64,000 nt of DNA. Origin: Dudresnaya verticillata. Taxonomy: Eukaryota. Within the stretch, counting starts at the first letter, position 1. Every line of letters starts with the position of its first letter. Shown here piece by piece: positions 13,286 through 63,451 of the stretch. Below the pieces are notes generated by a model, which made no database searches, was not told the DNA's origin, and saw nothing but the letters and a program-made list of their open reading frames with translations. The stretch spans positions 434,001 to 498,000 of the forward strand of contig OZ374559.1 in the NCBI GenBank assembly GCA_977862235.1, in the 5' to 3' direction. Both the position numbers and the translations under genes were made by a program.

Positions 13286-13960
13286 TCAGAGCTCAGAGCT
13301 ATGCGCCCTCGATTGAGGAGGTGTCACTTCAAAGCCCGTAAATGTTGCAACGCAGCCTCCGCCCTTCGTTGGTGACGCTGCGAAAGGCCCAACATGCCAT
13401 AAAGATCCCTCTGGCACATCCAGATAAGAGACGCGCACCATTCTGAACTCTTCCGGGTTCTTTGGGCTGGCGATCTCCATAGCCACGGAGTTTCCAATGA
13501 GATGGACCCGCAGTCGCACTGTCGCGACTCCATTTTGTGAGGAGTCCCATGCTCGTGCCGACCAGTCCGAACGGCTATTTGTCACAACGGCACCGAGAGT
13601 CATTTCGCCGTCTGTAAACTCAAACCCAAACTTGATCCAGTGTTCAGCATCAACGCGAACCAAAAGGCCGGCCTGGTCGAATTGATTTGCGGCAGACAGG
13701 TGCAACGTCGTGGTTACAGTTGCGTCTTTTGAAACTGGCTCCACCATAGCTGGGGCGTTGTCCACGATAAGCTCGGGGGTATAGTACGTTTTCCGCCACA
13801 TGTCGGAGCCGCTGGGTGGAATAACAAGTAACGATGAAGATGTAAGTGAGAAGCCGCCTCCTTGTCCAGCGTTTTCCGCTGGTTTCGCCTTGTGGTCATC
13901 GGTGAGTTCTGGAAGTGGGCCATTTAACCATTGCAGTTTGTGCAAACCTTTGGAAAACAT
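13286..13960 (-). CDS. DUF1349 family (REE1-like, concanavalin-like beta-sandwich) protein
   Basis: Family-like motifs SDMWRKTYY, DNAP, FDQAGLLVRVDAEHWIKFGFEF, GAVVTNSRSDWS, VGPFAASP; first ATG at 13960; single exon. Confidence 0.85.
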   Translation of the reverse strand: MFSKGLHKLQWLNGPLPELTDDHKAKPAENAGQGGGFSLTSSSLLVIPPSGSDMWRKTYYTPELIVDNAPAMVEPVSKDATVTTTLHLSAANQFDQAGLLVRVDAEHWIKFGFEFTDGEMTLGAVVTNSRSDWSARAWDSSQNGVATVRLRVHLIGNSVAMEIASPKNPEEFRMVRVSYLDVPEGSLWHVGPFAASPTKGGGCVATFTGFEVTPPQSRAHSSEL

Positions 13961-15683: not shown

Positions 15684-18600
15684 TTACCCTGAGAAGTCTG
15701 CCTCAATCCAAACACGAATCATATGTCGCTGCGAGCCTGATGGAAATGCCTCTCTAGCATGAGCGATGATATGATTGTTTGTAAACATTATATCTCCTCT
15801 TTCCAAACGACACTTCAAGGTTATTCCATGCTCCAGCTCACGATCAAGGGCGTCCATTGCTTGCAGCAGAATCTCTGGGATCTGAACACCAGCTCTTTGA
15901 TGCCCGCTCTCAATCCAGTCTCGCATATACCGAAACCGGGTTGCGCCGCTAGCGGCATCACGAGAGAATATTGGGAAAACGTTGTCTTTAAGACGCAATG
16001 GCAGGATCTTATCAGATCTCATCACCATGTCCCGAATAGTGTTCGCCACATCTTGTGCAGTTTCGCAACTTCGCAGGTCCTGTTCAGACCCTCCAAGGCC
16101 CTTCTCAATCAAATCACGGATAACTGATTCGCGCTCCAGCTCCCCAAGAACAGCTGATGACTCACTAGCTCGCAAAGAATTGTATAAGTTACATGCATTG
16201 GACAGCGATAGCGCACCTCCACTCTCAGCGGGTTTGATGCAATAAAGGCCAACAACGTCTGGGAAAAAGTCGCGCCGTGATCCATCAGTATGAAACGATG
16301 CTGCGTTGCAGGAAACGCTGAACAGCACGTTGTCTTGGGAGGTGCACAGCCCATGGTCCTTGACATGCCACAGGGGACCTCTCTCATTAGAGACATTTCC
16401 CATGCATTTCGACAACAGAAGGTATGCCATTCCCTGCACTTCTTCGGATGCCATTCTAGCTTCACCGTGGTCCAGAATGCCTTGAACCAAAACAGCCCCA
16501 GTGCCTGAAGAGCTAGTCAGATTTCTCATAATGCTGGCTGCAAACTCGTTTGTTTCTGAAAGCCTAACTTCTCTCAAATCAGCAGGACACACATCGATTG
16601 GCTTCATGCCTTTCTCAACCAAGCAGTTTGCAGCTTTGAACAACTCGATGGCACAGCTTCGTGGAGTGTTGGACTGGATGTTCTCCAGAGAGAAATTGTT
16701 TCCGTCTACCCTTGACGGCCAGATGATTTCTGGTGAACGTTTAATCCCACCAACATTGGCAGGCTTTCGGACACAGAAAGCCGCATGTAGCGGAACCCCT
16801 TCAAGAGGGCCAAAGAAATCTTTGTCCATAGCCAGCAGCTCCTCTGTCACTCCTAGCTCTACCAAGTCGGGTGTCTCGGTGAATCCCACCGACTTGAGTG
16901 CACGGAAATAGCTCTCAAATGTTTTGTGCGTGCATCTCACGTTGAGGCTGCGCCCGTCTCGAGTCATGATCCTTCCCTCACTGACAGAGTCAACCCTGTC
17001 AAAATAACCCTTATCTCCTTCGTCCCATTGAAATGGAAGCTCCTTCGGCCGGCCAGTCAAATCCCAGAACGGAAAACATGGGTGCGGAACAGAGAACACA
17101 AACTTTCCTCCTGGACGAAGAGTTTGGAAAACATTGTCCATGATTTCTTGCATGTCCTTTTCCGAGACATAGTTGAATACGAAGCATGCCACTGCAGCAT
17201 CAAACGAGTTGCAGACATCAGCACCAACGATAAGCCCTGGGACAGAGGCCGGCCCACTCTCCCTGATGATATCCAAGAGGCGAGTGGCGTCTCCAACAGC
17301 GTAAGTGAGACCTCCTAGGGGATTGGACTTTTCCTCTTCTATTGCAGCCAATATCATTGAACCGGAAACGTCGACGCCGAAAACAGCATCTACATCGTGG
17401 TGTTGTCGCAATTGTCGGGCGAGGTAGCCTTCCCCACATCCAACGTCTAAAACAGTCTGACCTTCAATGGGCTTGAGAAGATCGACAACGCGAGGCCTTC
17501 CGGTGAAGTCTGAAAGGCATGTCGGCTTTCTGCGAATCCAGTTTGAGGCCTGCTTGTTGTACAAAGCGGCGGTTGTCAACCCCGACTTGGACCGCTGCTC
17601 CTCTTCCGCAGACGCCACCTTGCTGGGATCATTGGGAGATCGCATTTTCAGGGCACTCTCAAGCAACGCGTCCCAGAGCTTTTCACGCTCATCGAGGACT
17701 GTGAGCGCCCCGAAGATCAAGTCACGCTCGGTATTTGAAGGGTCACGGCAGATAACCTCCCTGGCGATGTCCAGCAGCGTGGATGCATGGGCGTCGTCGA
17801 CAGAAACATGCAACGGGAAGAAGACGTAGTGCTGAAGATGCATTTCCGGGACGTGATTTTCGAAGGCCGAGATGAAGTGCGGGTAGATGTGCTTGACAAC
17901 AGCCTCGGTGCCTATGGATAGGGCACCGACTGCCGCGGCCTCGGAGGTATCTGGAGAGGCGATGAAGTGGGCGACGGTGTCGCAAAAGTCGTGGCCAGGG
18001 GCGGTATCATCCGTCTCAGAGCCGATATGGTCACCGGCGGCTTGCAGCACGCTCTCGAGCTCGGTCAGGGTCGAGCGGAAGAGAGAGTCATGTGGGATTC
18101 CGGCGACCCATGCCGGTTGTATGCCGTCCTGGGCGAGCTGATGCAGGTCGTCATCGGCGAGGCTGCCAGTCTCCTCAGCGAGGTCGTGCTGCAGGGCGCG
18201 GATATGGCTGGGCGAGCGGAGCTTTGCGATGGCGGCCTCGAGATTAGATCGAAAGGCGCGGTTGTATGGGACATAGTTGCGCAGCAGGTGGAGCAGGGCC
18301 TGGCGAGGCAGCGGGAGGCACTTGGGCGCAGCGGCGGGGGCTGAGAGAGCGGCGAGGTACGGATGGCGGATGGCGCGGTGCGAGCGCAGGACGGCGGCGA
18401 GGTGGGCGTGGACCAGGGGCGGACCGCTAGGGAGGGCTGGGACACGGAGGAGGAAGGCGACGAGCGCGTCGAAGGGCAGATGTGCGGCGGAAGGGGCCGG
18501 GCGAATGTGGCGCGTGAGCAGGGCATGGGCCGTGGCATGCGGGGAGAGGGACGGCGGCAGGTGCAGGGTGGAGAGGGCGGTGGAGAGGGTGGGGACGGTG

Positions 18601-18707
18601 AGCGGGGTTGTCGGCGGGAGCGAGAAGAGGGCGGTGTAGTGCGCGCGTAGGGCGGCGAGCAGAGCGGCGTGCAGGTCGCGGCGTGGTTGCCGGGGCGGGG
18701 TGGGCAT
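15684..18707 (-). CDS. 1007-aa fusion: heme-oxygenase-like diiron (TenA/PqqC/CADD-like) domain + class I SAM methyltransferase + TauD/TfdA-type Fe(II)/2OG dioxygenase
   Basis: Uninterrupted ORF. Diiron-type ligands: LAEETG...GIPHDSLF, GTE, FFPLHVSVDDAHA (H-x3-D-x2-H), ~18400-17650. SAM motif I VLDVGCGEG plus GVDVS and VGDA, ~17570-16770. 2OG dioxygenase FHTDGS (HxD) and GDIMFTNNHIIAHAREAF..RHMIRVW, ~16700-15690. Confidence 0.9.
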   Translation of the reverse strand: MPTPPRQPRRDLHAALLAALRAHYTALFSLPPTTPLTVPTLSTALSTLHLPPSLSPHATAHALLTRHIRPAPSAAHLPFDALVAFLLRVPALPSGPPLVHAHLAAVLRSHRAIRHPYLAALSAPAAAPKCLPLPRQALLHLLRNYVPYNRAFRSNLEAAIAKLRSPSHIRALQHDLAEETGSLADDDLHQLAQDGIQPAWVAGIPHDSLFRSTLTELESVLQAAGDHIGSETDDTAPGHDFCDTVAHFIASPDTSEAAAVGALSIGTEAVVKHIYPHFISAFENHVPEMHLQHYVFFPLHVSVDDAHASTLLDIAREVICRDPSNTERDLIFGALTVLDEREKLWDALLESALKMRSPNDPSKVASAEEEQRSKSGLTTAALYNKQASNWIRRKPTCLSDFTGRPRVVDLLKPIEGQTVLDVGCGEGYLARQLRQHHDVDAVFGVDVSGSMILAAIEEEKSNPLGGLTYAVGDATRLLDIIRESGPASVPGLIVGADVCNSFDAAVACFVFNYVSEKDMQEIMDNVFQTLRPGGKFVFSVPHPCFPFWDLTGRPKELPFQWDEGDKGYFDRVDSVSEGRIMTRDGRSLNVRCTHKTFESYFRALKSVGFTETPDLVELGVTEELLAMDKDFFGPLEGVPLHAAFCVRKPANVGGIKRSPEIIWPSRVDGNNFSLENIQSNTPRSCAIELFKAANCLVEKGMKPIDVCPADLREVRLSETNEFAASIMRNLTSSSGTGAVLVQGILDHGEARMASEEVQGMAYLLLSKCMGNVSNERGPLWHVKDHGLCTSQDNVLFSVSCNAASFHTDGSRRDFFPDVVGLYCIKPAESGGALSLSNACNLYNSLRASESSAVLGELERESVIRDLIEKGLGGSEQDLRSCETAQDVANTIRDMVMRSDKILPLRLKDNVFPIFSRDAASGATRFRYMRDWIESGHQRAGVQIPEILLQAMDALDRELEHGITLKCRLERGDIMFTNNHIIAHAREAFPSGSQRHMIRVWIEADFSG

Positions 18708-19569: not shown

Positions 19570-21444
19570 ATGTCCGAGGGCGCAGCTGTACGCACTAAGA
19601 CCCAGGCTAGTACGAAGTATAGCCGTATCAAGAAGAGACTCGACACTGCTGTGGTGAAGGATCCGTTCTTCGAGGAACTGTTCAATGTGAGCCGGTCGAT
19701 CCTTGATACCTACCGACAGACAAGCGCGGGAAACACCGCCGCCGTTTTTTCCCCGGCTGACGTCGTCAAGGAACACATTCAAAGTCTTCTTCCTACCCCA
19801 TCCGTCACCTACACGGAGAAGTTCTTCACCGTTCCGCTCTTCCCGATCGTTCTGCTGCACGATGTTGGGACGTTTTACGGACTTGGTGACATACCATAAG
19901 GTGCCGTTGAGGGAACTGCACTTTCAGATCTTAAGGCTGAAAGTCCCAACCTGCTCACGCATGTTTGGTTCGCGAAACGTCCGGGTTTTAACGCGCGTGA
20001 AGTGAAAGAAGTTCTTGAAACGTATCGTCGCTTCCGTGGAGACTTATCCTTCCTTCGTATGAACAGAGCAAACACCCAGTCTTATGGAAACAGTGTGACT
20101 CTTCCAATGGGTCGTGCGGGAACTGAACCTTCACCCGTCACCGAGAAGGAGGCCAACGCTGAACGCAACAGGTGCCAAGATTCTCCTTCGCCTCGTGATA
20201 TCAATCCGTCGCGCGCTGAGAGACTTTCTGCCCAGCCGGATCGCCGTGCGAATAGTGCTTCGAATGTTTCTGCTGAAGCTCATGGTCAAGATGACTACCG
20301 CCCGGTGCGAGACGAATCTCGTAAGGCAGCTTACGTTCATCTGCACTTCAAGTCACGCAAGTTCACTGGCGATCTTTTTCAGTCCATAGAGTTGTTGCTT
20401 CGTGATTACAATATCTGCGCTCGTCAACATCGTCTTACTCCGGTTCAAAAGGCAGATTACTTCATCAATTTTCTAAAAGGCGCTGCCCGAAACTTCTTCT
20501 TCAACAACGCTCGAGACGATATGTCATTCGATGACATGGCGAGGCTAATGAAGAACGAGTACGACAACGATGCTCGACAGCTCCAAGTTCAGACCTCCTT
20601 GGAAACCCTCAAGCTCCACCGCTTCATGTCCGAGAAGGAGATAACCTCTGTATGTGATGGGCTCACAAAACTTGTCGACCACATCGAATTCATGAGCCCA
20701 CAGTGCGCTACATATTTCCGTAGCGAGCAGCACCATATTCGCTACCTCCGTGGTGCTATCCTGCAGTACTCATGGGCGAAAATTCCAATCAGCCATCTGG
20801 TCACTGCGACGTACAGCTTCAACCAGTTCGTCACTGCTCTCCGCGAGAGCCTGGAACTCGAGGACGAGATCCAGGATCTTCAATCTGGTTCGAATTCTAC
20901 CCGCTATGCGCCATCGCAAGAAACTCACTACGGGCAGTACGGTCGTCACCCGAAATACGTCCGCAAGCATGATGACAATCGCCCGAGGAACAACAAGGCC
21001 CCGAACAAGTTTGGACGTACATTTGATGAGAGCAGACGCCGTAATGAGTGTCACAAATGTGGTTTCTCCCCGTGGAAGCCCAGCCATCGGTGTGCTCCGG
21101 GTTCCATTCGCAGCTCTGTTCGAGAAAAGCTCAGGAATGGGAAATCATCCGTGCATATTGTGTCGGACCTAGTTGTCGGCCTCGAGCAAGAGACCGACCA
21201 GCACCCTGAGGATGACACCGAGGATGGTAATGGCTTGCCAGGAAATCAAAGAATTGAGGAGACTCACCACCAGGCAATTAGTACCGACCTGGATGAGTTT
21301 GATACGCTTACCTCCACTTTTGCGCAACCCGTTGACACTTCCGTAGTCGAAGAAGTCGACAAGGAATGGTTTACCCACCACTTTACTGCCGCGCTCTCGA
21401 ACCAGGGTTCCAAACCTCATGAAGAAACCCAGGCTTTTTGCTAA
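19570..21444 (+). pseudogene. Copia gag with one premature stop
   Basis: ORFs 19570-19899 and 20002-21444 are in the same frame, separated by TAA at 19897-19899; zinc-knuckle-like CHKCGFSPWKPSHRC. Confidence 0.8.
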
Positions 21445-21492
21445 AGCGACGAGGCTCCATGCCTCAGACTCATCTCACTAAGCGTCAGGTGA

Positions 21493-23298
21493 ATGCACAT
21501 CGCACCACCTGTCAGAGGCGCATTTTGGAAGGAAAGATTTCCGTTCCCGCTCCTGTTGACTGCTCAGACATACATGTTGCTCAAATGTCAGGCACGACAA
21601 AACACCGGCTCCATGGGGTTTTGCCTGGATACAGGAGCACCAAGATCTGTAGTTGGAAGGAAACAACTCAATCGGATCATGAATGCTTTGGGAATCCACA
21701 AGTGGAAGTCTCATCGCTCGGAGACCCGGTTTCGTTTTGCAGACAAATGCTACAGTTCACTTAGCAAGGTCTCGTTACCACTGCTAACGCCACCGAGTGT
21801 TCCTAGAGTCGAAATCGAGCTCGACGTAGTGGAGGCAGACATCCCTGCCTTGCTCGGTATGGAAGTCCTAGACAGGGAACAATTACTCGTGGACACGGTT
21901 TGCAACAGACTATCGAAGCGTGTCGAGGTAGAGATAGCAGAAGGAAAGACAGCGTACGTCGATGAGTGGTCTGCCCCTTTAGAAAGATCACAGAGCAGGC
22001 ACATATACGCTCCCATCGACAGCAGCACGCGAGTTCACTTCACCCGAGCACAACTCCAACGCTTGCATCGTCAGTTTTATCACCCATCTGCCGATAAGTT
22101 GTTCAAGTTACTACGTAAGGAGAGACCAGAAGACGTAACACCTGAAGCCCTCAAGATCCTCGAAGACTTGGGAAAGAGGTGCGGTCCATGCCAACGTATC
22201 CAGAACGCTCCAGTGCGTTTCAAGGTGACGTTCGGAGCTGAGAACGTCAGGTTCAATGAGCGAATATTCATCGATGTCATGTACTTGGAAGGAAAACCGG
22301 TACTTACTATCATTGATGAAGGTAACCGCTTTGGTGCAGCTCGCTTACTACCTGATGTTTCGACCAAAACCATCTGGGAAACTTTACTGACCTGCTGGAC
22401 AACCATCTACACAGGATTACCAAACCGCATGCTTGTGGATCAAGGAAGTGCTTTCGCAAATACGTTCGTTGACATGGCTGCTATTTCGAGTGTTAAGGTT
22501 GACCACACCGGCGTCGAGGCTCACTCCAGCCTTGGCCTAACGGAAAGATACCATCAACCCCTCCGTACGACGTTCAGGACGATTATGGCCGACCAACCGC
22601 AAACGGACCGCAACCTAGCGCTCCAGGCTGCGGTCAAAGCCATGAACGATACCTTAGGCCCGGAAGGGCTTGTGCCGTCATCCTTGGTTTTTGGAGAGTA
22701 CCCCAAGGTAACCACGCGAGACGAGCCAGCACCAGTACGAGCCAATCTACGAAGCCGAGCTATAATGGCAGGTACAGCTCGTAAGGAGATGGAGAAAATC
22801 ATGGCAAAGCACAGAGTCGAACGGGCATTGAAGAGGGCAATACCAAGCGCAGTGGATAGAACATTTCAGGCAGGAGACGAAGTATTGGTTTTCAGAGAGA
22901 AGCTCATTGCGAACCGAATTGGAGAATGGGTTGGCCCATTCAAGGTTATAGCAGTGGACTATGAAAAGAAGCTGGTTTATGTTCAGGATGTTCAAGTCGG
23001 AAATGCACGGCCATTTAATATCACGAATGTCAAGAAGTACCAGCAACCCGTGGAAATAGCGAACTCTTTGTTCAGTGATATGCATGATGCTCTGTCGCAT
23101 TACGGATCGCCTCTTGAAGACGATGACATTTTCCTCACGGAAATTCTCGACCCCAGCGATCCGCGAGCCACATCCAAACGCATGGACGAAGCTAAGAGAA
23201 AAGAAGTTCGAGACCTGTTGAACAAGGGAGCATTTAAGGTAATTGTTAGAGAGGATGTACCACCTGGTACCAAGTTCTGCCTGGACGCTTTGTCCTAG
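21493..23298 (+). pseudogene. Copia pol: aspartic protease and integrase
   Basis: LDTGA protease motif; HRQFYH...CGPC zinc-binding motif; IDVMYL, DQGSAF and GLTERYHQPLR DDE core; frameshift near 23272. Confidence 0.9.
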
Positions 23299-24100
23299 CA
23301 ATCAAGTCTACGGAAGATGGCCAGGAAAAGTACAAGGCAAGATACGTCATAGGAGGCCACCGGGACAAGCTGAAACACATGATGGTACACTCAAGTGCCA
23401 CGCTTCAGCCCCAGTTGGTCCGACTACTACTTGCTCTTGCAGCAATGTTCGGGTTCGACATCTGGACTTCCAACGAGAAGCAAGCCTACCTTCAATCTGC
23501 TGAACCGCTTGCCCGGGAGATCTTCATTGACAAGCCAGTTGCAGAGTTCGAACTAGAACGTTCTAGGGTACCCTGGCAATGTCTCCAACTGCTCAAACCA
23601 CTCTACGGTTTATGTGAATCAAGAGACTTATGGCATGCTACGCTGGATAAGCACCATAGGCAAGACCTCGGTATGACGCCGCTCCGGTCAGACCCAGCGC
23701 TATACATCCTCATGGTGAATGGAATCCTTCAGGGGCTTAGCGGGGGCTACGTAGATGACCTACTTCGAGCAGGAAATTCCAAGTTCAAGGAAGTTGCAAG
23801 CGATACCCACAAGAAGTTCGAAATGACCGAGTGCAGCTACTTACCATGTGAGTTTACTGATTTCACTCTGACGAAGGACAAGGATGGCCTAGTCTGTATT
23901 GACCAGCACAAGTACCTACGAAAGTTGGAACAACAAACATGGAATTGCTCTTTCAAGGCATTCCGGTCGATGCGCATGCGACTCGCATGGCTCGCTAACA
24001 CAAGGCCGGACCTGCTGGTACAGATTGGACAGATGGCCCAAGTAACTGAAGAGATGTTCAAACAGAACGCCAAGCTTCATGTCAAGAGATTGAAACGTGT
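23272..24100 (+). pseudogene. Copia reverse transcriptase (frameshifted, 3'-interrupted)
   Basis: VLPGRFVLAIK..KYKARYVIGGHRD, QAYLQS, LLKPLYGL, YVDDLL. Confidence 0.9.
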
Positions 24101-25806
24101 GCTATAACGAAGTCCACGGTGACGCGGGAAGTCTCGCACTGTAAGGAATGGCCTCGGAGCCTAACGAATGGCCTCGAAACCTAACGGAGAAACGAAAAGG
24201 GGTGATAGCGTGGTAGAGCGGAGCGACCAACACGAAGGACCACGGTGTCAACGTATTCGTGTGCGGAAGGGAGAACTCGAGCGATCGATCACCGGGGATG
24301 ACTCCGGGTGCGCGGGGCTATCGAAAGCGAGGCTCGACCGTATCCGCGGTCACGAAGACGAAGACACCGGACTCGAAGAAACAGGCGTTTACCGAAGACT
24401 CCGAGGTCCGGGCGCTAGTCGCTTCCCCGGAAACCCTCGGAGGTTGCGCCAGACGACTGGCTAAGTAATACTACGTGAGCACGAATGCAAGTCAACGCGG
24501 GAGACGATTCGTACTCGAATGATTCGTAACGGCCTCGGTGCCAACGAACGGTCGCCTCACGTATGGTGGCGGTTGCGAAGTGCGCCAGCGATGCATACGG
24601 AGGTGCGCGTGTCTCGTGGGCCCCGGTGCCGTTATGCGCGGGAAACAACGGGAAAGTCACGAAGGTGTCAGTGATTTCGTATCGGGTGCGCACTGTAATG
24701 TGAATGCCATCGTGGCGCGCGCGATCACGAAGTCGGCTCGGAATTCGTCCGGAGGTGTCAGCGATTTCGTATCACGTGCGTGCTGTAATGCGAGTGCCAT
24801 CGTGGCACGCGCACAGTATGCGCTCTGTAATACGTTTGCCATCGTGGCGTGCGCATTCACGGAGTCACTTCGAAATTCGTATTTCTCGATTATTTTCACG
24901 TAGACCAGGGGGGCCCCAGTTTTCGCTTTCAAGCGGGTTGATATGCAGCGTCTACCGACGGACGACCGCCAACGGCGCGCTCAACCCGCCCGCGGCGCAA
25001 AAACGTCACCGACGCATGCCGCTGGCCACTTGGGCCAGAACGGCTCGCTGGGCGTGCAGACCGCACGCCTGAACCCGGCCACTGTACGGCGCCACGCGTA
25101 CGCGCATGGGGCAGTGGCGGGAACGTTCGCTGTAAGCGTGGCCCGAATCCGGATCCAATCGGGATCCCACATCGGGATCCCACATCGGGATTAAGGGGTG
25201 TAAGGCACGCGCCTGTAAGCCTGGCGCATCCGCATCGCTGGCTCGATTCCGGACTGGATCGGGATTGGTGCGGATCGAGATCGCTCGCGCCATGGGGCGC
25301 ATGCGGCTGTAAGGAAGTAATCCACGTGTAAGTGTAAGGACTTGACGGGGAAGCTACGCGTGATCTGTCAGGAGCGCGGCTGCATGACGGACGGATCTGT
25401 CAGACGCGCCTCGGGACAACACGTGTCCCGAGTTCCCGCGTTACGCGTACATCCGCGTCGCCGCCGCTAGGTAATTCTATACTTAGTTGATCCGTCTCAG
25501 ACGTCACAGTAAACCCCGGCAAGCCGGCCTTGGTCCAGACTTCCCCGTTCAGCACGCGCGTACCCTACCGCTGCCTACGGCTAAGCGTCTACCTCCCGTG
25601 CTTCCACGTCTCTACCCGTCTTCGACGTGTTTCCTTTTTGTTCCTTCTGTTCTTCCTTTCCGCCTCGGGCGTTTACAGTCCGCCCAAAGCGAGTCAATTG
25701 CTCTACCACAAGTCGCCCAAGGCGGGGCTACTCACCGCCAAGGGCGTCGCTACCGACCGAGCCCCGAACTTCTCGGCGGTGTTCCGTCAACGACGTTTGC
25801 ACTACA
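24100..25806 (+). mobile_element. ~1.7-kb non-coding LTR-like insertion between RT and RNase H
   Basis: Interrupts pol; ends gacgtttgcactaCA; has internal ~90-bp and 13-bp repeats and recurring ctgtaa(g) motifs; its 3' part resembles the reverse complement of 28748-28920. No TSD found; left edge approximate. Confidence 0.65.
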
Positions 25807-35742: not shown

Positions 35743-36264
35743 CTAAACAATCAAAGACCCCGGCGCATGTGCTACAGATGCATATGCTCGGTAACTCATC
35801 CTTGAGAAGCGAGGCATACAGAACATGACTCTCGGCGCCGGGGGTGTCGGCTGTGCCACTTGGTTCAGCCCTCTCGTCGTGATATCTCGGATCTCACCAA
35901 TCAAGTCTTCAATTGGGGTATAGTATTGGTCATTCGGAACAACACGGAATAGACGAGGCTGACCTGCCGGTGCATCAATGGCAGTCTCTATCCTGTTCAC
36001 GAAACCATCCACGGCTCTGAGCTGATCCCCTGTTGCTGTTCTAGCTGCCACCAGATCGTACATGTAGCTTCGAATTGCCCGCAAGTCGTTATGGACTCCC
36101 AAAGACGGCGTGTTATCACGGATCAAAAAGCTCCGATGGTTCACCGTTAGCCTTGCGATTTCGATTCCAGTGGCTTGCCGCATATTGGGGCGTCGTGCAT
36201 TGGTACCCTTAGTTGCCATAAGCATTAAAGCAGCTAGAACAAGCCCATTAACAAATGTTTTCAT
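35743..36264 (-). CDS. Secreted 173-aa protein, family A, copy 1
   Basis: Signal-peptide-like MKTFVNGLVLAALMLMATKGTNA; TATAAAA on the minus strand at 36528-36534; ungapped paralog A' at 41999. Confidence 0.85.
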   Translation of the reverse strand: MKTFVNGLVLAALMLMATKGTNARRPNMRQATGIEIARLTVNHRSFLIRDNTPSLGVHNDLRAIRSYMYDLVAARTATGDQLRAVDGFVNRIETAIDAPAGQPRLFRVVPNDQYYTPIEDLIGEIRDITTRGLNQVAQPTPPAPRVMFCMPRFSRMSYRAYASVAHAPGSLIV

Positions 36265-38156: not shown

Positions 38157-38606
38157 ATGAATATTCTCTCCATCGCTGTGCTTCTCACTGTTCTGGGTTT
38201 TGTATCAGCTGCACAAGTTTCCCAAGGCCGTGAAGATTCGACTATGAGCTTTCTCCAGAACCCGGTGGAGCGTTGGAGTCCAGGGCGGTGCTTCGGATCT
38301 TCTTCACTTACCCGATGCTGTGAGCACGAAGCGTACTGGTGTGGTTACCACAAGCACACAGCCATATCGCATTGCAAGTATTGCATTAACAACTGTCTCT
38401 CAGTTCCAAACTCCGATAGAGTACATATTAGGCTGGGAAGCTTTTTCGAGACAAAGGCCACGCGCACAGCTACGCAATGGGCTCAGCTCTGTCGACACGT
38501 GGACAGCGAAAGGACTAACACCTGCCCGAGTCCGAAGTCATGTGCCCTAGACGCGTCTTGCAATCAGCATGCGCTCGCAACCCCGCTTCCTACTTGCAAG
38601 GATTAG
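38157..38606 (+). CDS. Secreted 149-aa Cys-rich protein (12 Cys), family B, copy 1
   Basis: ATG 38157, signal peptide MNILSIAVLLTVLGFVSA, TATATAA at 37975; synonymous-only differences from B' in the mature region. Confidence 0.88.
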   Translation: MNILSIAVLLTVLGFVSAAQVSQGREDSTMSFLQNPVERWSPGRCFGSSSLTRCCEHEAYWCGYHKHTAISHCKYCINNCLSVPNSDRVHIRLGSFFETKATRTATQWAQLCRHVDSERTNTCPSPKSCALDASCNQHALATPLPTCKD

Positions 38607-39892: not shown

Positions 39893-40342
39893 CTAATCCT
39901 TGCAAGTAGGAAGCGGGGTTGCGAGCGCATGCTGATTGCAAGACGCGTCTAGAGCACATGACTTCGGACTCGGACAGGTGTTAGTCCTTTCGCTGTCCAC
40001 GTGTCGACAGAGCTGAGCCCATTGCGTAGCTGTGCGCGTGGCCTTTGTCTCGAAAAAGCTTCCCAGCCTAATATGCACTCTATCGGAGTTTGGAACAGAG
40101 AGACAGTTGTTAATGCAATACTTGCAATGCGATATGGCTGTGTGCTTGTGGTAACCACACCAGTACGCTTCGTGCTCACAGCATCGGGTAAGTGAAGACG
40201 ATCCGAAGCACCGCCCTGGACTCCAACGCTCCACCGGGTTCTGGAGAAAGCTCATAGTCGAGTCTTCACGGCCTTGGGAAACGTGTGCAGCTGATACAAA
40301 ACCCAGGGCAGTGAGAAGCATCGCGATACTGAGAAGAGTCAT
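39893..40342 (-). CDS. Secreted Cys-rich protein B', copy 1
   Basis: ATG 40342, signal peptide MTLLSIAMLLTALGFVSA; same protein as B from VSQGRED onward. Confidence 0.88.
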   Translation of the reverse strand: MTLLSIAMLLTALGFVSAAHVSQGREDSTMSFLQNPVERWSPGRCFGSSSLTRCCEHEAYWCGYHKHTAISHCKYCINNCLSVPNSDRVHIRLGSFFETKATRTATQWAQLCRHVDSERTNTCPSPKSCALDASCNQHALATPLPTCKD

Positions 40343-41998: not shown

Positions 41999-42520
41999 AT
42001 GAAGACAGTCGTTAACTCACTCTTCTTTTCCGCTCTGGTCATGACTATCGGGTTGGGGGTCAACGCGTTGCGCCCCGGAGCGCGACAAGCTACCGGGCAA
42101 GAAATTGCAAGAATCACTGCCAACCAACTCACCTATGTGATCCGTGATAACACGCCAGCCCTTGGTGTCCGTAACGACATGCGTTCTCTTCGCAACTTTG
42201 CATACGACAGGGTGGCCGCCAGAACGATCACAGCCGCCCAGCTAAATGATCTCAACACGTTTACGACTAGGGTCGAGGCAGCCCTCAACGCGCCGGCAGG
42301 CCAAACTCGTCTTTACAATGTTCCACATACAGATCCGCTTTCCCAAGAAATTGAAAACTTGATCGGAGAGATTCGCGCACAAATCATTAACGGAAGGGCC
42401 CAGCTGGCGCAGCCGACGCCATCAGTTCCAAGGGCAATGTTTTGCATTCCGCGTGGATCCCGAATGAGCACTGTGGGACATGTCTCTGACATGGGTGTGG
42501 AAGGGATAGCGTCTGCCTGA
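41999..42520 (+). CDS. Secreted 173-aa protein A', copy 1
   Basis: Signal-peptide-like MKTVVNSLFFSALVMTIGLGVNA; TATATAA at 41865; about half of residues identical to A by manual alignment. Confidence 0.85.
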   Translation: MKTVVNSLFFSALVMTIGLGVNALRPGARQATGQEIARITANQLTYVIRDNTPALGVRNDMRSLRNFAYDRVAARTITAAQLNDLNTFTTRVEAALNAPAGQTRLYNVPHTDPLSQEIENLIGEIRAQIINGRAQLAQPTPSVPRAMFCIPRGSRMSTVGHVSDMGVEGIASA

Positions 42521-43359: not shown

Positions 43360-43881
43360 CTAAACAATCAAAGACCTCGGCGCATGTGCTACAGATGCAT
43401 ATGCTCGGTAACTCATCCTTGAGAAGCGAGGCATACAGAACATGACTCTCGGCGCCGGGGGTGTCGGCTGTGCCACTTGGTTCAGCCCTCTCGTCGTGAT
43501 ATCTCGGATCTCTCCAATCAAGTCTTCAATTGGGGTATAGTATTGGTCATTCGGAACAACACGGAATAGACGAGGCTGACCTGCCGGTGCATCAATGGCA
43601 GTCTCTATCCTGTTCACGAAACCATCCACGGCTCTGAGCTGATCTCCTGTTGCTGTTCTAGCTGCCACCAGATCGTACATGTAGCTTCGAATTGCCCGCA
43701 AGTCGTTATGGACTCCCAAAGACGGCGTGTTATCACGGATCAAAAAGCTCCGATGGTTCACCGTTAGCCTTGCGATTTCGATTCCAGTGGCTTGCCGCAT
43801 ATTGGGGCGTCGTGCATTGGTACCCTTAGTTGCCATAAGCATTAAAGCAGCTAGAACAAGCCCATTAACAAATGTTTTCAT
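43360..43881 (-). CDS. Secreted protein A, copy 2
   Basis: Same as copy 1 except G to R near the C-terminus. Confidence 0.85.
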   Translation of the reverse strand: MKTFVNGLVLAALMLMATKGTNARRPNMRQATGIEIARLTVNHRSFLIRDNTPSLGVHNDLRAIRSYMYDLVAARTATGDQLRAVDGFVNRIETAIDAPAGQPRLFRVVPNDQYYTPIEDLIGEIRDITTRGLNQVAQPTPPAPRVMFCMPRFSRMSYRAYASVAHAPRSLIV

Positions 43882-45738: not shown

Positions 45739-46188
45739 ATGAATATTCTCTCCATCGCTGTGCTTCTCACTGTTCTGGGTTTTGTATCAGCTGCACAAGT
45801 TTCCCAAGGCCGTGAAGATTCGACTATGAGCTTTCTCCAGAACCCGGTGGAGCGTTGGAGTCCAGGGCGGTGCTTCGGATCTTCTTCACTTACCCGATGC
45901 TGTGAGCACGAAGCGTACTGGTGTGGTTACCACAAGCACACAGCCATATCGCATTGCAAGTATTGCATTAACAACTGTCTCTCAGTTCCAAACTCCGATA
46001 GAGTACATATTAGGCTGGGAAGCTTTTTCGAGACAAAGGCCACGCGCACAGCTACGCAATGGGCTCAGCTCTGTCGACACGTGGACAGCGAAAGGACTAA
46101 CACCTGCCCGAGTCCGAAGTCATGTGCCCTAGACGCGTCTTGCAATCAGCATGCGCTCGCAACCCCGCTTCCTACTTGCAAGGATTAG
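45739..46188 (+). CDS. Secreted Cys-rich protein B, copy 2
   Basis: Same translation as copy 1, +7582. Confidence 0.88.
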   Translation: MNILSIAVLLTVLGFVSAAQVSQGREDSTMSFLQNPVERWSPGRCFGSSSLTRCCEHEAYWCGYHKHTAISHCKYCINNCLSVPNSDRVHIRLGSFFETKATRTATQWAQLCRHVDSERTNTCPSPKSCALDASCNQHALATPLPTCKD

Positions 46189-49580: not shown

Positions 49581-50102
49581 ATGAAGACAGTCGTTAACTC
49601 ACTCTTCTTTTCCGCTCTGGTCATGACTATCGGGTTGGGGGTCAACGCGTTGCGCCCCGGAGCGCGACAAGCTACCGGGCAAGAAATTGCAAGAATCACT
49701 GCCAACCAACTCACCTATGTGATCCGTGATAACACGCCAGCCCTTGGTGTCCGTAACGACATGCGTTCTCTTCGCAACTTTGCATACGACAGGGTGGCCG
49801 CCAGAACGATCACAGCCGCCCAGCTAAATGATCTCAACACGTTTACGACTAGGGTCGAGGCAGCCCTCAACGCGCCGGCAGGCCAAACTCGTCTTTACAA
49901 TGTTCCACATACAGATCCGCTTTCCCAAGAAATTGAAAACTTGATCGGAGAGATTCGCGCACAAATCATTAACGGAAGGGCCCAGCTGGCGCAGCCGACG
50001 CCATCAGTTCCAAGGGCAATGTTTTGCATTCCGCGTGGATCCCGAATGAGCACTGTGGGACATGTCTCTGACATGGGTGTGGAAGGGATAGCGTCTGCCT
50101 GA
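49581..50102 (+). CDS. Secreted protein A', copy 2
   Basis: Same translation as copy 1, +7582. Confidence 0.85.
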   Translation: MKTVVNSLFFSALVMTIGLGVNALRPGARQATGQEIARITANQLTYVIRDNTPALGVRNDMRSLRNFAYDRVAARTITAAQLNDLNTFTTRVEAALNAPAGQTRLYNVPHTDPLSQEIENLIGEIRAQIINGRAQLAQPTPSVPRAMFCIPRGSRMSTVGHVSDMGVEGIASA

Positions 50103-57685: not shown

Positions 57686-59539
57686 TTCGGTGGAATGTCA
57701 AATGCACTGAGAAGTTGCTAAGACTACGTTGACAACAGCAGTTCGAAGCTAGAGTTCCTCATTCCCAGATAAGTCGCTTCTTTTAGTCGATACTAAGAGA
57801 GAGAATATAATACCACAGCGTCTTGTGCCTCGGTTGATCTTTGAAACTGTGCTTTTGACTCGAATCAGCGAGAAGCGAGCACTTTCGTCATTTAAATCGA
57901 TTCAAAACCTAAATCTTGCAACTCGCTCTGCACTAGCACTATTTTCATGCCAATGACCACGTCCGCAAGCAGATCAATTAACTGACATTTCGGTGTCACC
58001 TCGGCACATTCCCGATACCCCCAAATGCCCATCCAAGCGCGCTGCCCTCCGCCAACCCACTGCTACTCTACACAAGGTCGCGATACGCGAACCCACCCCT
58101 CAAGAGGTCCAAGAAATAACGGAAGCCATCTACCTGATCCGAGCGGTCTGCCAAGAATAATTCCCTCTTCCCCTCCCGCACAAGCACTCGACATTGCCTC
58201 AATAGACTACAGCCTGAAAGTGCGCCTACAAACGGGCCATTTCCGCCCGCGCAGGACCACTCGAAACAAAACATCAATAGATCAAACTTCAGATCATCCT
58301 TCAATTTTTTCCTGTCATCACACACCTTTACTATACCATGAGGGGCATGTTCTATTCTTTCCGTGTCAAGCCTTAGAGTTTGGCATTGATGAAGACATGC
58401 AATGCAAAACTATGTTTAACGCAGCGTTGATCATCGACGTAGAAGATTCACTGCACTGTTTATTTACCTGCATAGTAAGCATATAAGTAGTTATGGAACA
58501 TGTAGATTCCGTAAGAAATTGGACACTGAAACACCTCATTATCTAGCAGTATCCAAATTTCTGTTGATGATCGTCTTTACAACAAATTGATTATCCATTA
58601 ATGATGGAGACATTTATGCATAGGAACGTACAACAAGAACAACCTCCCTTGTCGCAAAAGAAATAAATCCCACGTTTCCATCGCAGACTGCAACCTTCAA
58701 TTATCGACAAAACCGTCGATCTTCCTTACAAAGTCCTGTGAATATCCTGCGCCAGCCTTGTTTTTGCATGCAATAGTTAAACGTACCGCAAACATATTTC
58801 TATGCCTTCTCCTTGACAAACAACACTAGCAAATTGTTGTGCACTTCCCAAACAATCCTGGATTAATAAGCCGATATTTCATGTTATTCCTAGCCACTTC
58901 CAATATTATGACACGCATTCTTCTATAAACACAGCCGAAAATAAGACTTTCCTCCATTATCTAGACAGTTTGTGACCGAGATGAACTCTAGCGATGTCGT
59001 TCAACTTGGGTAGGTATAGAGGACTTCCGAGTGAAGTCAATCTGGCCCAGCCTTGGCCGGAGATTATAAATGGGTGGTCAAGATAGAGTAGCATGCAGTG
59101 TCAATTGTCACTGAATATTGTCAGTAGTTGCATTCAATTCCACGTTCGCGTGGAGGATGAAACTCAGTACAAGAACTATTCCGACGTCAGCAACAAAGTA
59201 AAGAAAAGCCAACGATTACAAAACAGAACAACAACCAACCAATCTAGGGAACTAGTCTAGCACACGCTACAGACCGGAGACGGTGCAACGCTTTGCGTTT
59301 GCAACTAATGGAAGACAAGTTCAAAGAACCACGGAACACTCAACTAGTGTCTACGTTTGAATCAACCTCCGCTACCATTGGAATCAATTGCTCCGCCCTC
59401 AGTCAGCTCTTTTGAGAGCCGTTCCGAGCGTGCAGCTCTTACACTCGTGCTAACCGAAGCAGCCCTTTTGAGGGCCGTTCATCGACGAACACGTGTGGAT
59501 CCTAACGGCTACAGTGCCGTAAAGGTCTGTATTTTGACA

Positions 59540-59661
59540 AGCGACAAGCAGACCCTGTCCACATCCAACCGCGGCATCTGCAGGGTCTCTATCTTCGTAC
59601 CCCGTGCATATGCATCTATGGGCGTGGATAATATTACCTCTGGTACTATCACTGGTGCTAA
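59540..59661 (+). pseudogene. Pseudogenised 3' fragment of a paralog of the 61268-61681 peptide gene
   Basis: SDKQTLSTSNRGICR, frameshift, then CICIYGRG*YYLWYYHWC* versus SDKQNLPTSNRGICR...CICVWGRGCYC...WFYYWC*. Confidence 0.85.
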
Positions 59662-60204
59662 GGACGTAACCATAGTGCATGGTATTTTGTTAAAACACTC
59701 TCGTACGTCGACTCATAGATACCATACATCTGATTGATGTCTTTACATGTAGTAGAATGAACCCCCTACAGAAAGTGCTCTCCTAAACGTGACGAGTCAT
59801 TGAAACACGAGCTGCTCCAAATATGCTCTTGAGCAAATGAGGGTTCCTTCCTTCGCACGGGTCCGCACGTGGTCCGAACATTATCGTTCCTACTTTTCCT
59901 TCAGTCGTTCCCAAAACAATTTACTTCTACCGCCAGTACGAAAGCACATAAAGCAGATGCCAATGCTTGTGCAGGCGTCCCAAGCAAGCACCGCTCCATC
60001 TCTCAGCCCATTGAAGACAAGAGCACAACCATTGAAGGCACCAGGACCATCGCGCTCAAGACTACCCGAATACCACACCACCTCGCCCATAGCTCCAATG
60101 CAGCCTGCCGGAATACGTGCGGACCCGTGCAGTTTATGCCTCCAATCGTGAATAAGATATTTTGATAGCGTTTGACTAAGCGCAGTGTCTGGAGTGCTTC
60201 TCTG

Positions 60205-60523
60205 CCCGCGAATTTTCCACTGGTGTGGGATGTGATGTTGTTCTTTGATGTGTGCGAAGCGGTGTGGATGCTATTATCTGATTGGCAGATCTCAGAAAAC
60301 TTTAAACAATGCAATTCCTGTATGCAATTCCATTGACTGTGAAGCTGTCTCAGGTCAGATATTTTACTTATCACAGGAAGGAGGCCTTTTTTCAACCAAT
60401 GGAAATTGCACTCGCGAATTGCATTGTTTCAAGTTTTCTGAAATCTGCCAATCGAAGATTAGTATCCGCACCGCTTCGCACATCCCCTTCCACATCCCAC
60501 CAGTGGACCAGTGGACAATTCGC
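60205..60523. repeat. Imperfect inverted repeat (arms ~60205-60335 and ~60397-60523), MITE- or hairpin-like
   Basis: gcgaagcggtgtggatgct..gattggcagatctcagaaaactttaaacaatgcaatt is the reverse complement of aattgcattgtttcaagttttctgaaatctgccaatc..tatccgcaccgcttcgc. Confidence 0.85.
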
Positions 60524-61267
60524 TCGCACAGAAGAACTGTCCCCAGTCCAACGCTACCGAAAGATCTCGTTCACTTCTAGAAGCATGCGCATCAAAGCTA
60601 CAAGTCGAATCGGCCCTGCAGCTTTTACACGACCACGCAAAGGGAAAGGGAAGAAACTCAAGGATTAGATCTACAAAAAGTGTTGACTTAGCTCATAGGT
60701 GTTCTCAGGAGCCAACTCGGTCGGGAAACACAGCCGTATCGCAAACCTTCGTATTCTGAAGAGTTGACACACCGAGTGCCATCTACCTTCGCCTTGTACG
60801 CCAGTGACACGAGGCAAACTGTCTGGGAACGATTAAGCGAATTATCAGGAACGGAAATGTGTGGACTGAACAATTGAAGCAGAGAGCTGCCCTCATGCTC
60901 GGATATTATATTGTGAAGTGATGATCGTGAAACATCTGTGAATGTTGTAGTAGAGAGGAATGACGTTGTCGTCATACAATACTCGCATATAATAATACAT
61001 TTGAACAAGCAGATTTGAAATTTGAATGCGATCTTTAACGAAACGCTGCTCGTTTGCTGCATTCCACAGTGCTATTCGACCTCTCTGTGCCTAATGAAGC
61101 GAATGTTATAGTATGGCCAAGAAAGCATGGAGTGGCTCTTGATTCAATAACTCGAAGTTTACGAAAGCCGACCTTGCCGCGGGGCCATGACACATTCCAA
61201 TGGTATCTATCTATTTTTGGCATGACCCGAACCGTCCAACACAATATCAACCCCCATGCCTACAACC

Positions 61268-61681
61268 TTAGCACCAGTAATAGAACCAGTAACAATAGCG
61301 GTAGCAGTAGCATCCACGTCCCCAGACACAAATGCACCGGATGCCACACCTGATCCCCCTGCAAATACCACGGTTGGAAGTGGGCAGGTTCTGCTTGTCA
61401 CTAGAGTTCATTTCCGTCACAAACTCCTCCGTATTCTCATTCTTATCCTTTGACAGTCGGCTGACGGCACTTGCCGTGGTGGAGATGGAGCAGCACGTCT
61501 TGCCAAGAGAGTTGTCTTCGGACTCCTCGCAGCTCAGGACCTTGCATGCAGAGTTGGCCGGCTTGGCGCATTCCGTTGTGGCCTTGCCCTCATCATCACC
61601 AGTGTGGCACTTGCACGGGCAAGCGGCAAGGGCAGCGGAGGAGAGGGCCAGGATGACCAGGATGGCAAAAAGCTTGTTCAT
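61268..61681 (-). CDS. Secreted prepropeptide: signal peptide, 8-Cys domain, acidic linker, C-terminal cationic aromatic 8-Cys peptide
   Basis: MNKLFAILVILALSSAALA signal peptide; TATAAATA at 61789-61796 (minus); C-terminus GICRGIRCGIRCICVWGRGCYCYRYCYWFYYWC; decayed paralog at 59540. Confidence 0.88.
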   Translation of the reverse strand: MNKLFAILVILALSSAALAACPCKCHTGDDEGKATTECAKPANSACKVLSCEESEDNSLGKTCCSISTTASAVSRLSKDKNENTEEFVTEMNSSDKQNLPTSNRGICRGIRCGIRCICVWGRGCYCYRYCYWFYYWC

Positions 61682-63451
61682 GACAAGGAATAGGATGAGT
61701 TGAGAAGGGTGACCTGTTCGTTGATGTGATTTGTGTGAGGACTGGCTGGCACTTGATGATGTTGTTGAAGGGAGAGATGGAGATCTTATATTTATACACG
61801 TTGTGTTCTAGTTGGCATATAGGAGAGATATTGTGTGGAGTTAGCCCCTATTGCAACCCTTGCCTACAAGAGAAGTGAATGGATATTGTTTGCAAAAACG
61901 TAGAGTGTATCTCACAGGTTCAGTTGCGACAAACAATGCACATGGCACTGATGGAGGAATGGCGTTTCTTCTGCTGTGTTTATGGAAATCTTCCATACTA
62001 TTGGAAGTGCTTAGGAGTAACATGCAGCATCGGCGTGTTGATCTAGGAGTATTCGCTGCTATTGTTTGCCAAAGAGATGGAGACCTTTATGCATAAGAGA
62101 AAGCATATAAATATATTGGCCATAAGTTTAACCGTTTAATGCACAAACAAGGGTATCACGAAACGTGCTAAGAGAGAGCTTTACTATTACTGGAATGTTG
62201 CCATAGTTGCAGGCTGCAATGGAAGCGGGGATTTTATTTCTATTGCCACAAGGAAGGTTGTTCGTTCTGTAAAGACAATCATCAACGGGAATTATTTGGA
62301 AAGTGCTAGGTGAAGAGGTATTTCGCTGTCTGGTTCTTCTACTTTCCCATGGCAAGGGGATCTGCATTCTATGCAGGCAAGCAAACAGTGCAGTGAATAA
62401 TCTACCTCGATAATCACGTTGCGGTCAACCCAGTTTTGCATTGCATGCCAAACTCTGGGTTTTGGTGCGGAAAGAGGGGAACATGCCCCTCATGGTATTG
62501 AAGGGAACAACATTGGAGGAGGATATGCCTGCGCTCGTGTCCATTGATGTGACCTAGTGCTAGCGCACAGTGAGTCCCAGGTTTCGCCTCGATTTAAAAC
62601 CAGGAGATAGGCATCTTGCGCCCTCGAGTCTAATAATATCTTGTTTCAAACCTCACCTGACAAGGAGGCACTAACACATTGAGGTCTCGCGACGGAAGAA
62701 GGCGAGATTGAAAACAGAACATTGTACCGCCGTGGTCTGCACATTTTGTTACTGCAGTACGCGACGAAGTCGTGATAAAAGCACTTGGCCAAAGGACAAC
62801 AATTATATGTAGTTATCTCGAACTGGCACCATCTGAGGGGCGCGAATTCCTGCTCCGTCGTCCTCGATGGACTGAGTTATACTGGTACCGAGGGCGTGCT
62901 TTTATTCCATGTTGACCGAAGCACAGAATGACGTAACAGGTCATTGCGTTTGCGCACATCTCCAGATCTAAATCGGTCGTGGCGATACACTGAACTCCTG
63001 ACCAGCCGTGCAGCATGCGATGCATAGTCGCCAGAGATGGCCTCTACAACCTTGAGACCCTCATCACGTGGGTTTGTCATTGCATTTTACTCTACGCGCA
63101 GTGCATGTTGTTACTAATCGCCAGAGAAACGATCTAGATACAGAACCATTCTAAGAGGATCGGCTGATCCGAGTTTGAAAGCGGTGAGAATCTGGGAGCC
63201 GCGGATCGACATTTCGCAGGTGCAAGGGGGGAAGCGAGGCGATGACAATGGTATTGTTCGGGTGCAATTGCTTTGTCACCGCCGCTTTCGTCGTCATTCG
63301 TTGCATGCGGGTCGGAGGGGGCACATGTTGTGCTGTTTTGCACTGATTGCGCGTTGAACGAAACTGCGGGTACGTCTAATAGTGTCACACAACACTACTA
63401 AAAGGAATTGTGAGACGATATTTCTGAAGTAACCGCTTTTCGTAAGACCCA

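Follow-up and report, generated by a model that had tools for sequence, protein, structure and literature searches.

The window, by which we mean the whole 64,000-nucleotide stretch of DNA analyzed here, encodes toward its end a small precursor protein, P0001. The gene and its parts, in the direction of transcription, are as follows.

61786 to 61796, minus strand: a TATA-like element visible in the sequence, 105-115 bases 5' of the ATG, the putative promoter.
61268 to 61681, minus strand: the precursor open reading frame P0001, a single uninterrupted exon of 137 codons (137 aa).
61625 to 61681, minus strand: predicted signal peptide, residues 1-19, with Lys3, a hydrophobic core and an A-L-A end.
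61484 to 61624, minus strand: N-terminal Cys-rich domain, residues 20-66, with the pattern C-x-C-x-C-x12-C-x7-C-x4-C-x11-CC.
61370 to 61483, minus strand: linker of variable sequence, residues 67-104, gap-rich and on the whole close to neutral.
61457 to 61465, minus strand: VSR, which may be cleaved as a second monobasic site behind the Cys-rich domain; it is present as [VI]SR in three of four family members.
61370 to 61381, minus strand: TSNR, the predicted monobasic processing site, T-[ST]-[SN]-R in all four members, with T101 and R104 invariant.
61271 to 61369, minus strand: the predicted mature 33-residue Arg/Tyr/Cys beta-hairpin (the tail), with predicted rungs 14-20, 12-22 and 8-26 and an off-register 3-33 clasp.

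Three homologues of P0001 (P0002, P0003 and P0004), all full length, were identified in a search among 1.84 billion representatives, with E values of 4.7e-36, 6.0e-25 and 8.4e-24. They share 49-53% identity with P0001, and each is a single-member cluster from Logan assemblies. A profile search of a larger collection (1871 candidates of 73-268 aa) returned the same three and no further homologues. No related locus was confirmed among 587 pattern matches in metagenome contigs or among 603 in viral contigs. Judged from its sequence, P0001 is a real gene, because it has full-length homologues, a GC3 of 0.70 (versus a local GC of about 0.47) and a TATA-like element upstream. The opposing view is that P0001 is non-functional or read in the wrong frame, a chance open reading frame within low-complexity sequence. 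It could draw on the absence of a Pfam or PDB match, on NCBIfam matches that are not meaningful, on a low Atlas recognition score (1861), and on plus-strand open reading frames that overlap P0001. However, the frames of all three homologues are intact and their Cys residues are conserved. These homologues appear to have largely refuted the chance view already, and we consider it highly improbable.

All four proteins have the same layout: a signal peptide, a Cys-rich domain, a variable linker, T-[ST]-[SN]-R, and an Arg/Tyr/Cys tail of 32-33 residues. The signal peptide was assigned by rule, from hydropathy and alignment; the best 11-residue hydropathy is 3.09 in P0001 and 2.5-3.5 in the homologues, and A17 and A19 are invariant in all four. 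The original prediction of a precursor gains support from these features, which point to a conserved and probably secreted one, and so does its placement of a cleavage site directly before the tail, where T-[ST]-[SN]-R occurs in every member. Mean pairwise identity among the four sequences is 0.65 in the tail (0.85 in its C-terminal strand), a figure inflated by low complexity, 0.45 in the Cys-rich domain, 0.44 in the signal peptide, and 0.26 in the linker (residues 67-100), where 14 columns are gapped and all members agree only in an EE pair and a single Ser. Conservation is highest in the tail, which is not hypervariable.

The separate eight-Cys domain described at the outset is present in P0001. 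P0003 also has eight Cys in this domain, P0004 has seven (C25 alone is missing), and P0002 has six, having neither C21 nor C46. Overall, 14 of its 47 positions are invariant, including the motif GKTCC. The full-length AlphaFold2 model, at low confidence, weakly predicts the order strand-helix-strand-strand, whereas the domain modeled alone (pLDDT 53) contains helix only. The defensin-like (cysteine-stabilized alpha/beta) fold is strand-helix-strand-strand with helix-to-strand disulfides. Structural matches to the domain, sought with VIA-align from low-confidence models, reached a Z of 3.5 at most; designed EHEE mini-proteins scored Z 2.3-3.0.

An acidic linker had been proposed as the propiece. 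We rejected this idea: the net charge of the linker is -1 in P0001 and +1, +1, and +3 in the three homologues. The acidic part is instead the Cys-rich domain, with net charges of -3, -6, and -5 in three of the four proteins and +2 in P0002. Taken together, domain and linker form a pro-region (85 residues in total in P0001) that is net negative in the same proportion (-4, -5, and -2) and net +3 in P0002. The further suggestion of two products per precursor gains a candidate second site, since [VI]SR occurs after the Cys-rich domain in addition to T-[ST]-[SN]-R, so two products are possible; this second site is found in only three of the four proteins. A complex prediction for the Cys-rich domain and the tail, made with the alignment not used, scored 0.00 and is informative neither way.

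The composition of the tail is exactly as first described. In the translated open reading frame, the last 33 residues include eight Cys (positions 3, 8, 12, 14, 20, 22, 26, and 33), five Arg, and 10 aromatic residues (six Tyr, three Trp, and one Phe), with no Asp, Glu, or Lys. Such a composition is rare in the window: only four of 43,053 stop-free 33-mers from the six frames pass a filter that is looser than the tail itself (at least six Cys, at least eight aromatics, and no D or E), and all four come from the P0001 tail. Across the family, the net charge of the tail is +5, +6, +6, and +7, all of it derived from Arg, and Lys, Asp, and Glu are absent from all four proteins. Tyr accounts for 6-13 of the 32-33 residues (13 of 32 in P0003) and aromatics for 30-41%. 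The tail ends in Cys followed by the stop codon, with no following Gly for amidation, and is a linear chain. The calculated monoisotopic mass of the 33-mer with four disulfides is 4134.7.

The Cys pairs 8/26, 12/22, and 14/20 are symmetric around G17, as originally claimed, but the outer pair proposed with them, 3/33, is two residues off register (C3 lies opposite Y31). We rejected the symmetry as proof of a ladder because shuffling the tail's own 33 residues 100,000 times yields three Cys pairs symmetric around some center in 16% of cases (P = 0.16). Modest support for the predicted 8/26, 12/22, and 14/20 ladder comes from the homologues, via the joint loss of one pair, the placement of the only indel, and the structural model. 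In the P0003 tail, positions 8 and 26, partners of one predicted rung, are both Tyr (chance 3 in 28); this covariation is one event among four sequences, and in the Cys-rich domain the loss of C25 from P0004 has no partner loss. Within the tail, the alignment is gapped at a single column, located in the turn (five residues in P0001, four in the homologues), and the register of the arms is thereby kept. The AlphaFold2 model computed from the four-sequence alignment places strands at residues 106-119 and 123-136, with residue 121 (G17) at their center, which agrees with the hairpin first proposed around this Gly. The model is of low confidence, with a mean pLDDT of 47.8 and values of 60-64 in the hairpin blocks.

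All six ladder Cys are at even positions and hence on one face. The opposite face bears C3 and C33, both of which are invariant, and the row Y21, Y23, Y25, Y27, F29, and Y31, which faces R7 and R11. Arg and aromatic residues occur on both faces, and the arrangement is one of a cationic strand and an aromatic strand, not a clean amphipath.

None of the four proteins matches a Pfam family, and the NCBIfam matches are weak and inconsistent, each occurring in one of the four members. Sequence searches of the PDB returned nothing for the tail alone or for the profile of the Cys-rich domain, and four weak, unrelated matches for the full profile. Five PDB matches to full-length P0001, the best of which align residues 56-89 with designed viral heptad constructs, were rejected as short chance similarity, as no stretch passes alone and the Cys residues are unaligned. 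Foldseek, run with the low-confidence model, found no matches at an E value of 0.001 or better. VIA-align found no chains at Z of at least 5 with either model, a result that says nothing about fold novelty as the models are of low confidence. The Atlas provided no usable match for P0001, and Rfam provided none. The literature matches listed (titles and the starts of abstracts, mostly from open-access journals) include no description of this family or of a gene-encoded algal hairpin antimicrobial peptide.

In Cys spacing, the C-x-C-x4-C-x-C core of the three homologues presumably resembles that of protegrins. Each arm of the P0001 tail spaces its rungs x3-x1, in contrast to what we take to be x1-x1 in theta-defensins, and we assume that the Cys patterns of hepcidin, Ib-AMP, and RCB differ from that of the tail. 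Broader comparison is possible with a 2026 review that describes 27 families of beta-hairpin antimicrobial peptides, two of them from flowering plants (PMC13001179, available text). The terms 'alga', 'seaweed', and 'protist' have no instances in that text (term search of the main text). It profiles the class as having a charge of +1 to +8, Arg favored over Lys, few acids, and a length of 11-25 residues, and it states that membership needs experimental evidence beyond modeling (PMC13001179, same portion). In charge, the tails fall within this range in all four proteins (+5 to +7, with no Lys, Asp, or Glu). In length they do not, as the predicted product, if cut at the conserved Arg, has 32-33 residues in all four.

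Like the P0001 tail, protegrins, tachyplesins/polyphemusins, and gomesin are Arg-rich and acid-free, and they are cut from a larger precursor as a single disulfide-stapled hairpin, a release and a structure that are predicted for the tail (PMC13001179, available text). The tails of the P0001 family are longer, at 32-33 residues, than protegrins (16-18) and tachyplesins/polyphemusins (17-18), according to the same text (PMC13001179). They are also predicted to have three to four disulfides (6-8 Cys), versus the two given for protegrins, tachyplesins, and gomesin in the portion available. The P0001 tail further differs from protegrins and tachyplesins in having no amidation Gly, an aromatic content of 30-41% across the family, and no PDB sequence match. 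Theta-defensins are likewise Arg-rich, and the three disulfides predicted for one face of the tail are, as in their ladder, parallel and cross-strand; however, theta-defensins are described as backbone-cyclized primate peptides of 18 residues, whereas the tail is linear and has 33 (PMC13001179, available text). Hepcidin, in the source text available, has four disulfides in a hairpin, the maximum predicted for the tail, but no similarity was detected. The review names no plant members besides Ib-AMP and RCB (PMC13001179, available text), and no similarity between these two and P0001 was detected.

In precursor design there is a parallel with BRICHOS-linked antimicrobial peptides (arenicin, alvinellacin, and capitellacin), which are made with a folded pro-domain ahead of a C-terminal, aggregation-prone hairpin (PMC7761999, portion available), an order that P0001 is predicted to share. 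Capitellacin is also described there as not strongly amphipathic, as is the case for the tail. Yet the P0001 family has no BRICHOS domain (no Pfam match in any of the four), and its Cys-rich pro-domain, 47 residues long, belongs to no known family. Because defining features of each are missing, P0001 is not a member of the protegrins, tachyplesins, theta-defensins, or BRICHOS precursors, but it may work like them.

The surroundings of the gene include a decayed copy of it and several other genes.

58333 to 59691, plus strand: decayed inverted duplicate of the P0001 gene, recognized by sequence homology.
38157 to 38606 (plus strand), 39893 to 40342 (minus strand), and at 45739, 47475, 53321, and 55057: an apparently secreted Cys-rich protein of 149 aa in six copies, as inverted pairs; no Pfam match for the copy scanned.
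35743 to 36264 (minus strand), 41999 to 42520 (plus strand), 43360 to 43881 (minus strand), and at 49581, 50942, and 57164: an apparently secreted protein of 173 aa, two diverged paralogues in six copies of alternating orientation; no Pfam match for the two scanned.
20059 to 24107, plus strand: a broken retrotransposon spread across three open reading frames, in which gag-like, protease, integrase, and RVT_2 reverse transcriptase matches follow the copia order.
15684 to 18707, minus strand: an intronless open reading frame of 1007 aa in which a haem-oxygenase-like domain is joined to a SAM methyltransferase and a TauD dioxygenase.
13286 to 13960, minus strand: a DUF1349 concanavalin-like protein, the closest match to which is a Logan protein at 56% identity.

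In the decayed duplicate, about 600 bases of upstream homology remain (58333-58957), and the promoter, signal peptide, and Cys-rich domain are not recognizable. Remnants persist of the linker (58967-58994) and of the tail (59538-59661); the latter is frameshifted, carries an internal stop, and has lost four codons. Both 8/26 Cys are missing from the tail remnant, but other Cys are gone too. Unrelated sequence of about 545 bases (58995-59540) splits the linker of the duplicate; it is flanked on either side by SD codons and may be an old insertion. An imperfect inverted repeat of about 350 bases (60193-60538), located between the P0001 gene and this duplicate, is 70% identical to its own reverse complement and may be MITE-like.

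A unit of about 7.58 kb is present in about three tandem copies of 99.7-99.9% identity (35411-57806), either a very recent amplification or an assembly artifact. This array lies directly beside the P0001 gene, and each copy encodes inverted pairs of the 149-aa and 173-aa proteins, both apparently secreted orphans. The 149-aa protein has a VER motif ahead of its Cys-rich part that may be a similar monobasic site. Because the repeated units hold inverted pairs of apparently secreted orphans beside P0001, the locus is a group of apparently secreted genes, restricted to their lineage, with a tendency toward inverted duplication. The 1007-aa fusion is possibly a multistep small-molecule biosynthetic enzyme. 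For one neighboring open reading frame, the Atlas look-alikes fall in clusters that are 100% eukaryotic, with no single phylum standing out. Together with the retrotransposon, this supports a eukaryotic origin of the window, though not specifically the algal one first suggested. A homologue search with a neighboring protein returned one unnamed protein and one distant named protein of bacterial type. The compact genes with few introns and the style of the retrotransposon may point to a red alga, which we offer as an impression.

Overall, P0001-P0004 are a real family of four that lacks annotation; its members are likely secreted precursors, each ending in an Arg/Tyr hairpin that is probably stapled by cystines, and this structural reading is fairly well supported. 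The question raised by such a family is what the hairpin does. The explanation that we prefer, with a confidence that falls a little short of even and by analogy with known peptides, is that these proteins are a new family of cationic hairpins, set free by a protease and likely to act in defense. P0001 would be a prepropeptide that is first secreted. A monobasic protease would then cut after TSNR to free a rigid, cationic, aromatic 33-residue hairpin with three predicted cross-strand disulfide staples and perhaps a fourth, off-register 3-33 disulfide. Until release, the folded Cys-rich domain of the pro-region (net acidic in three of the four proteins) would shield the sticky aromatic hairpin, and the domain may itself come off as a second peptide. 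At the surface, the hairpin would bind anionic microbial envelopes, and microbes would be killed or trapped via Arg contacts and the Tyr/Trp face.

For a defense role speak the Arg-only charge and the absence of Lys, Asp, and Glu in all four tails, which agree with the class profile in the available text of PMC13001179, the BRICHOS-like order of a folded pro-domain ahead of a hairpin, the net negative pro-region in three of the four proteins, and the position of the gene next to arrays in which genes for two further, apparently secreted proteins are duplicated. The antimicrobial function may be real but is argued by analogy, and it is weakened by the conservation of the tail and by its content of up to 41% aromatics, mostly Tyr. 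The conservation is the reverse of the conserved-pro, hypervariable-mature pattern reported for the MgCRP-I family, and synthetic mussel MgCRP-I peptides, which are cationic and Cys-rich, had no antimicrobial activity (PMC4558851, available text). The length of the tail relative to the class, the lack of clean amphipathic faces, and the net +3 pro-region of P0002 also argue against defense.

The same precursor and hairpin could instead supply a structural block, in which Arg would bind anionic wall polysaccharide and the Tyr-rich strand would stack and be oxidatively cross-linked (via dityrosine or halotyrosine) into a cuticle, a spore or cyst wall, or an adhesive. Points in favor of this alternative are that the tail is the most conserved part, is too long for the antimicrobial class, and is up to 41% aromatic, and that the MgCRP-I peptides were inactive. 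It also accommodates the abundance of Tyr (6-13 per tail), the location of the highest conservation (0.85) in the Tyr strand, the replacement of both lost Cys by Tyr in P0003, and the Tyr-lined face from Y21 to Y31. There are precedents for such chemistry. Eimeria GAM56 is cut by subtilisins into tyrosine-rich peptides that are cross-linked in the oocyst wall (PMC4345034, available text), and haloperoxidase cross-linking of secreted phenolics has been proposed for brown algal adhesives (PMC2866472, available text). The processing of the secreted GAM56/GAM82 precursors to Tyr-rich peptides is like that envisaged for P0001, but no homology was detected, and a coccidian wall protein is called intrinsically unstructured in a title cited in the available text of PMC4345034, versus the disulfide-braced hairpin predicted here. 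In addition, P0001 has no repeats, no oxidase gene was recognized among the scanned open reading frames of the window, and the strict absence of Lys and acids fits the antimicrobial class profile (PMC13001179, available text). A match to a known structural wall-protein family, which the original prediction had named as evidence against it, was not found in Pfam or NCBIfam for any of the four members. The available text of PMC13518417, PMC2866484, and PMC12404814 yielded neither a gene-encoded algal hairpin peptide nor a composition for the cuticle protein of red algae. We regard wall building as a possible but somewhat doubtful function when taken by itself; set side by side, defense is slightly ahead and a cell-wall role is nearly as plausible. 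Less expected is that activity resides in the Cys-rich domain, or in a protein of two disulfide-linked parts, serving as a ligand, a signal, a gamete-recognition factor, or an inhibitor, with the tail, cleaved or not, as a wall tether. The invariant residues of the domain, with GKTCC among them, and its compact, possibly strand-helix-strand-strand form in the low-confidence model are compatible with this idea. Other pairings are also possible, given that tail residues C3 and C33 are invariant yet off register and that P0004 has an odd number of Cys. However, T-[ST]-[SN]-R is kept precisely where the tail begins, behind a linker rich in gaps, and conservation is higher in the tail than in the domain; we consider an active Cys-rich domain unlikely.

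Returning to the protease-released defense hairpin, its most far-reaching form is that P0001 represents the first gene-encoded cystine-ladder beta-hairpin defense family from an algal or protist lineage. Such a family would have evolved independently of the animal peptides and would exceed all 27 reviewed families in length and in disulfide stapling, with a novel Cys-rich pro-domain released as a second product. We offer this extended version tentatively and hold it doubtful. Beta-hairpin antimicrobial peptides are rare, and if the P0001 tail is antimicrobial, the design would have been invented independently and the tail would add a natural scaffold to those known. In the case of a wall or adhesive function, the tail would supply tyrosine cross-linked marine materials with a small, defined building unit. 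Either outcome would give a function to a family that has no annotation in the libraries searched.
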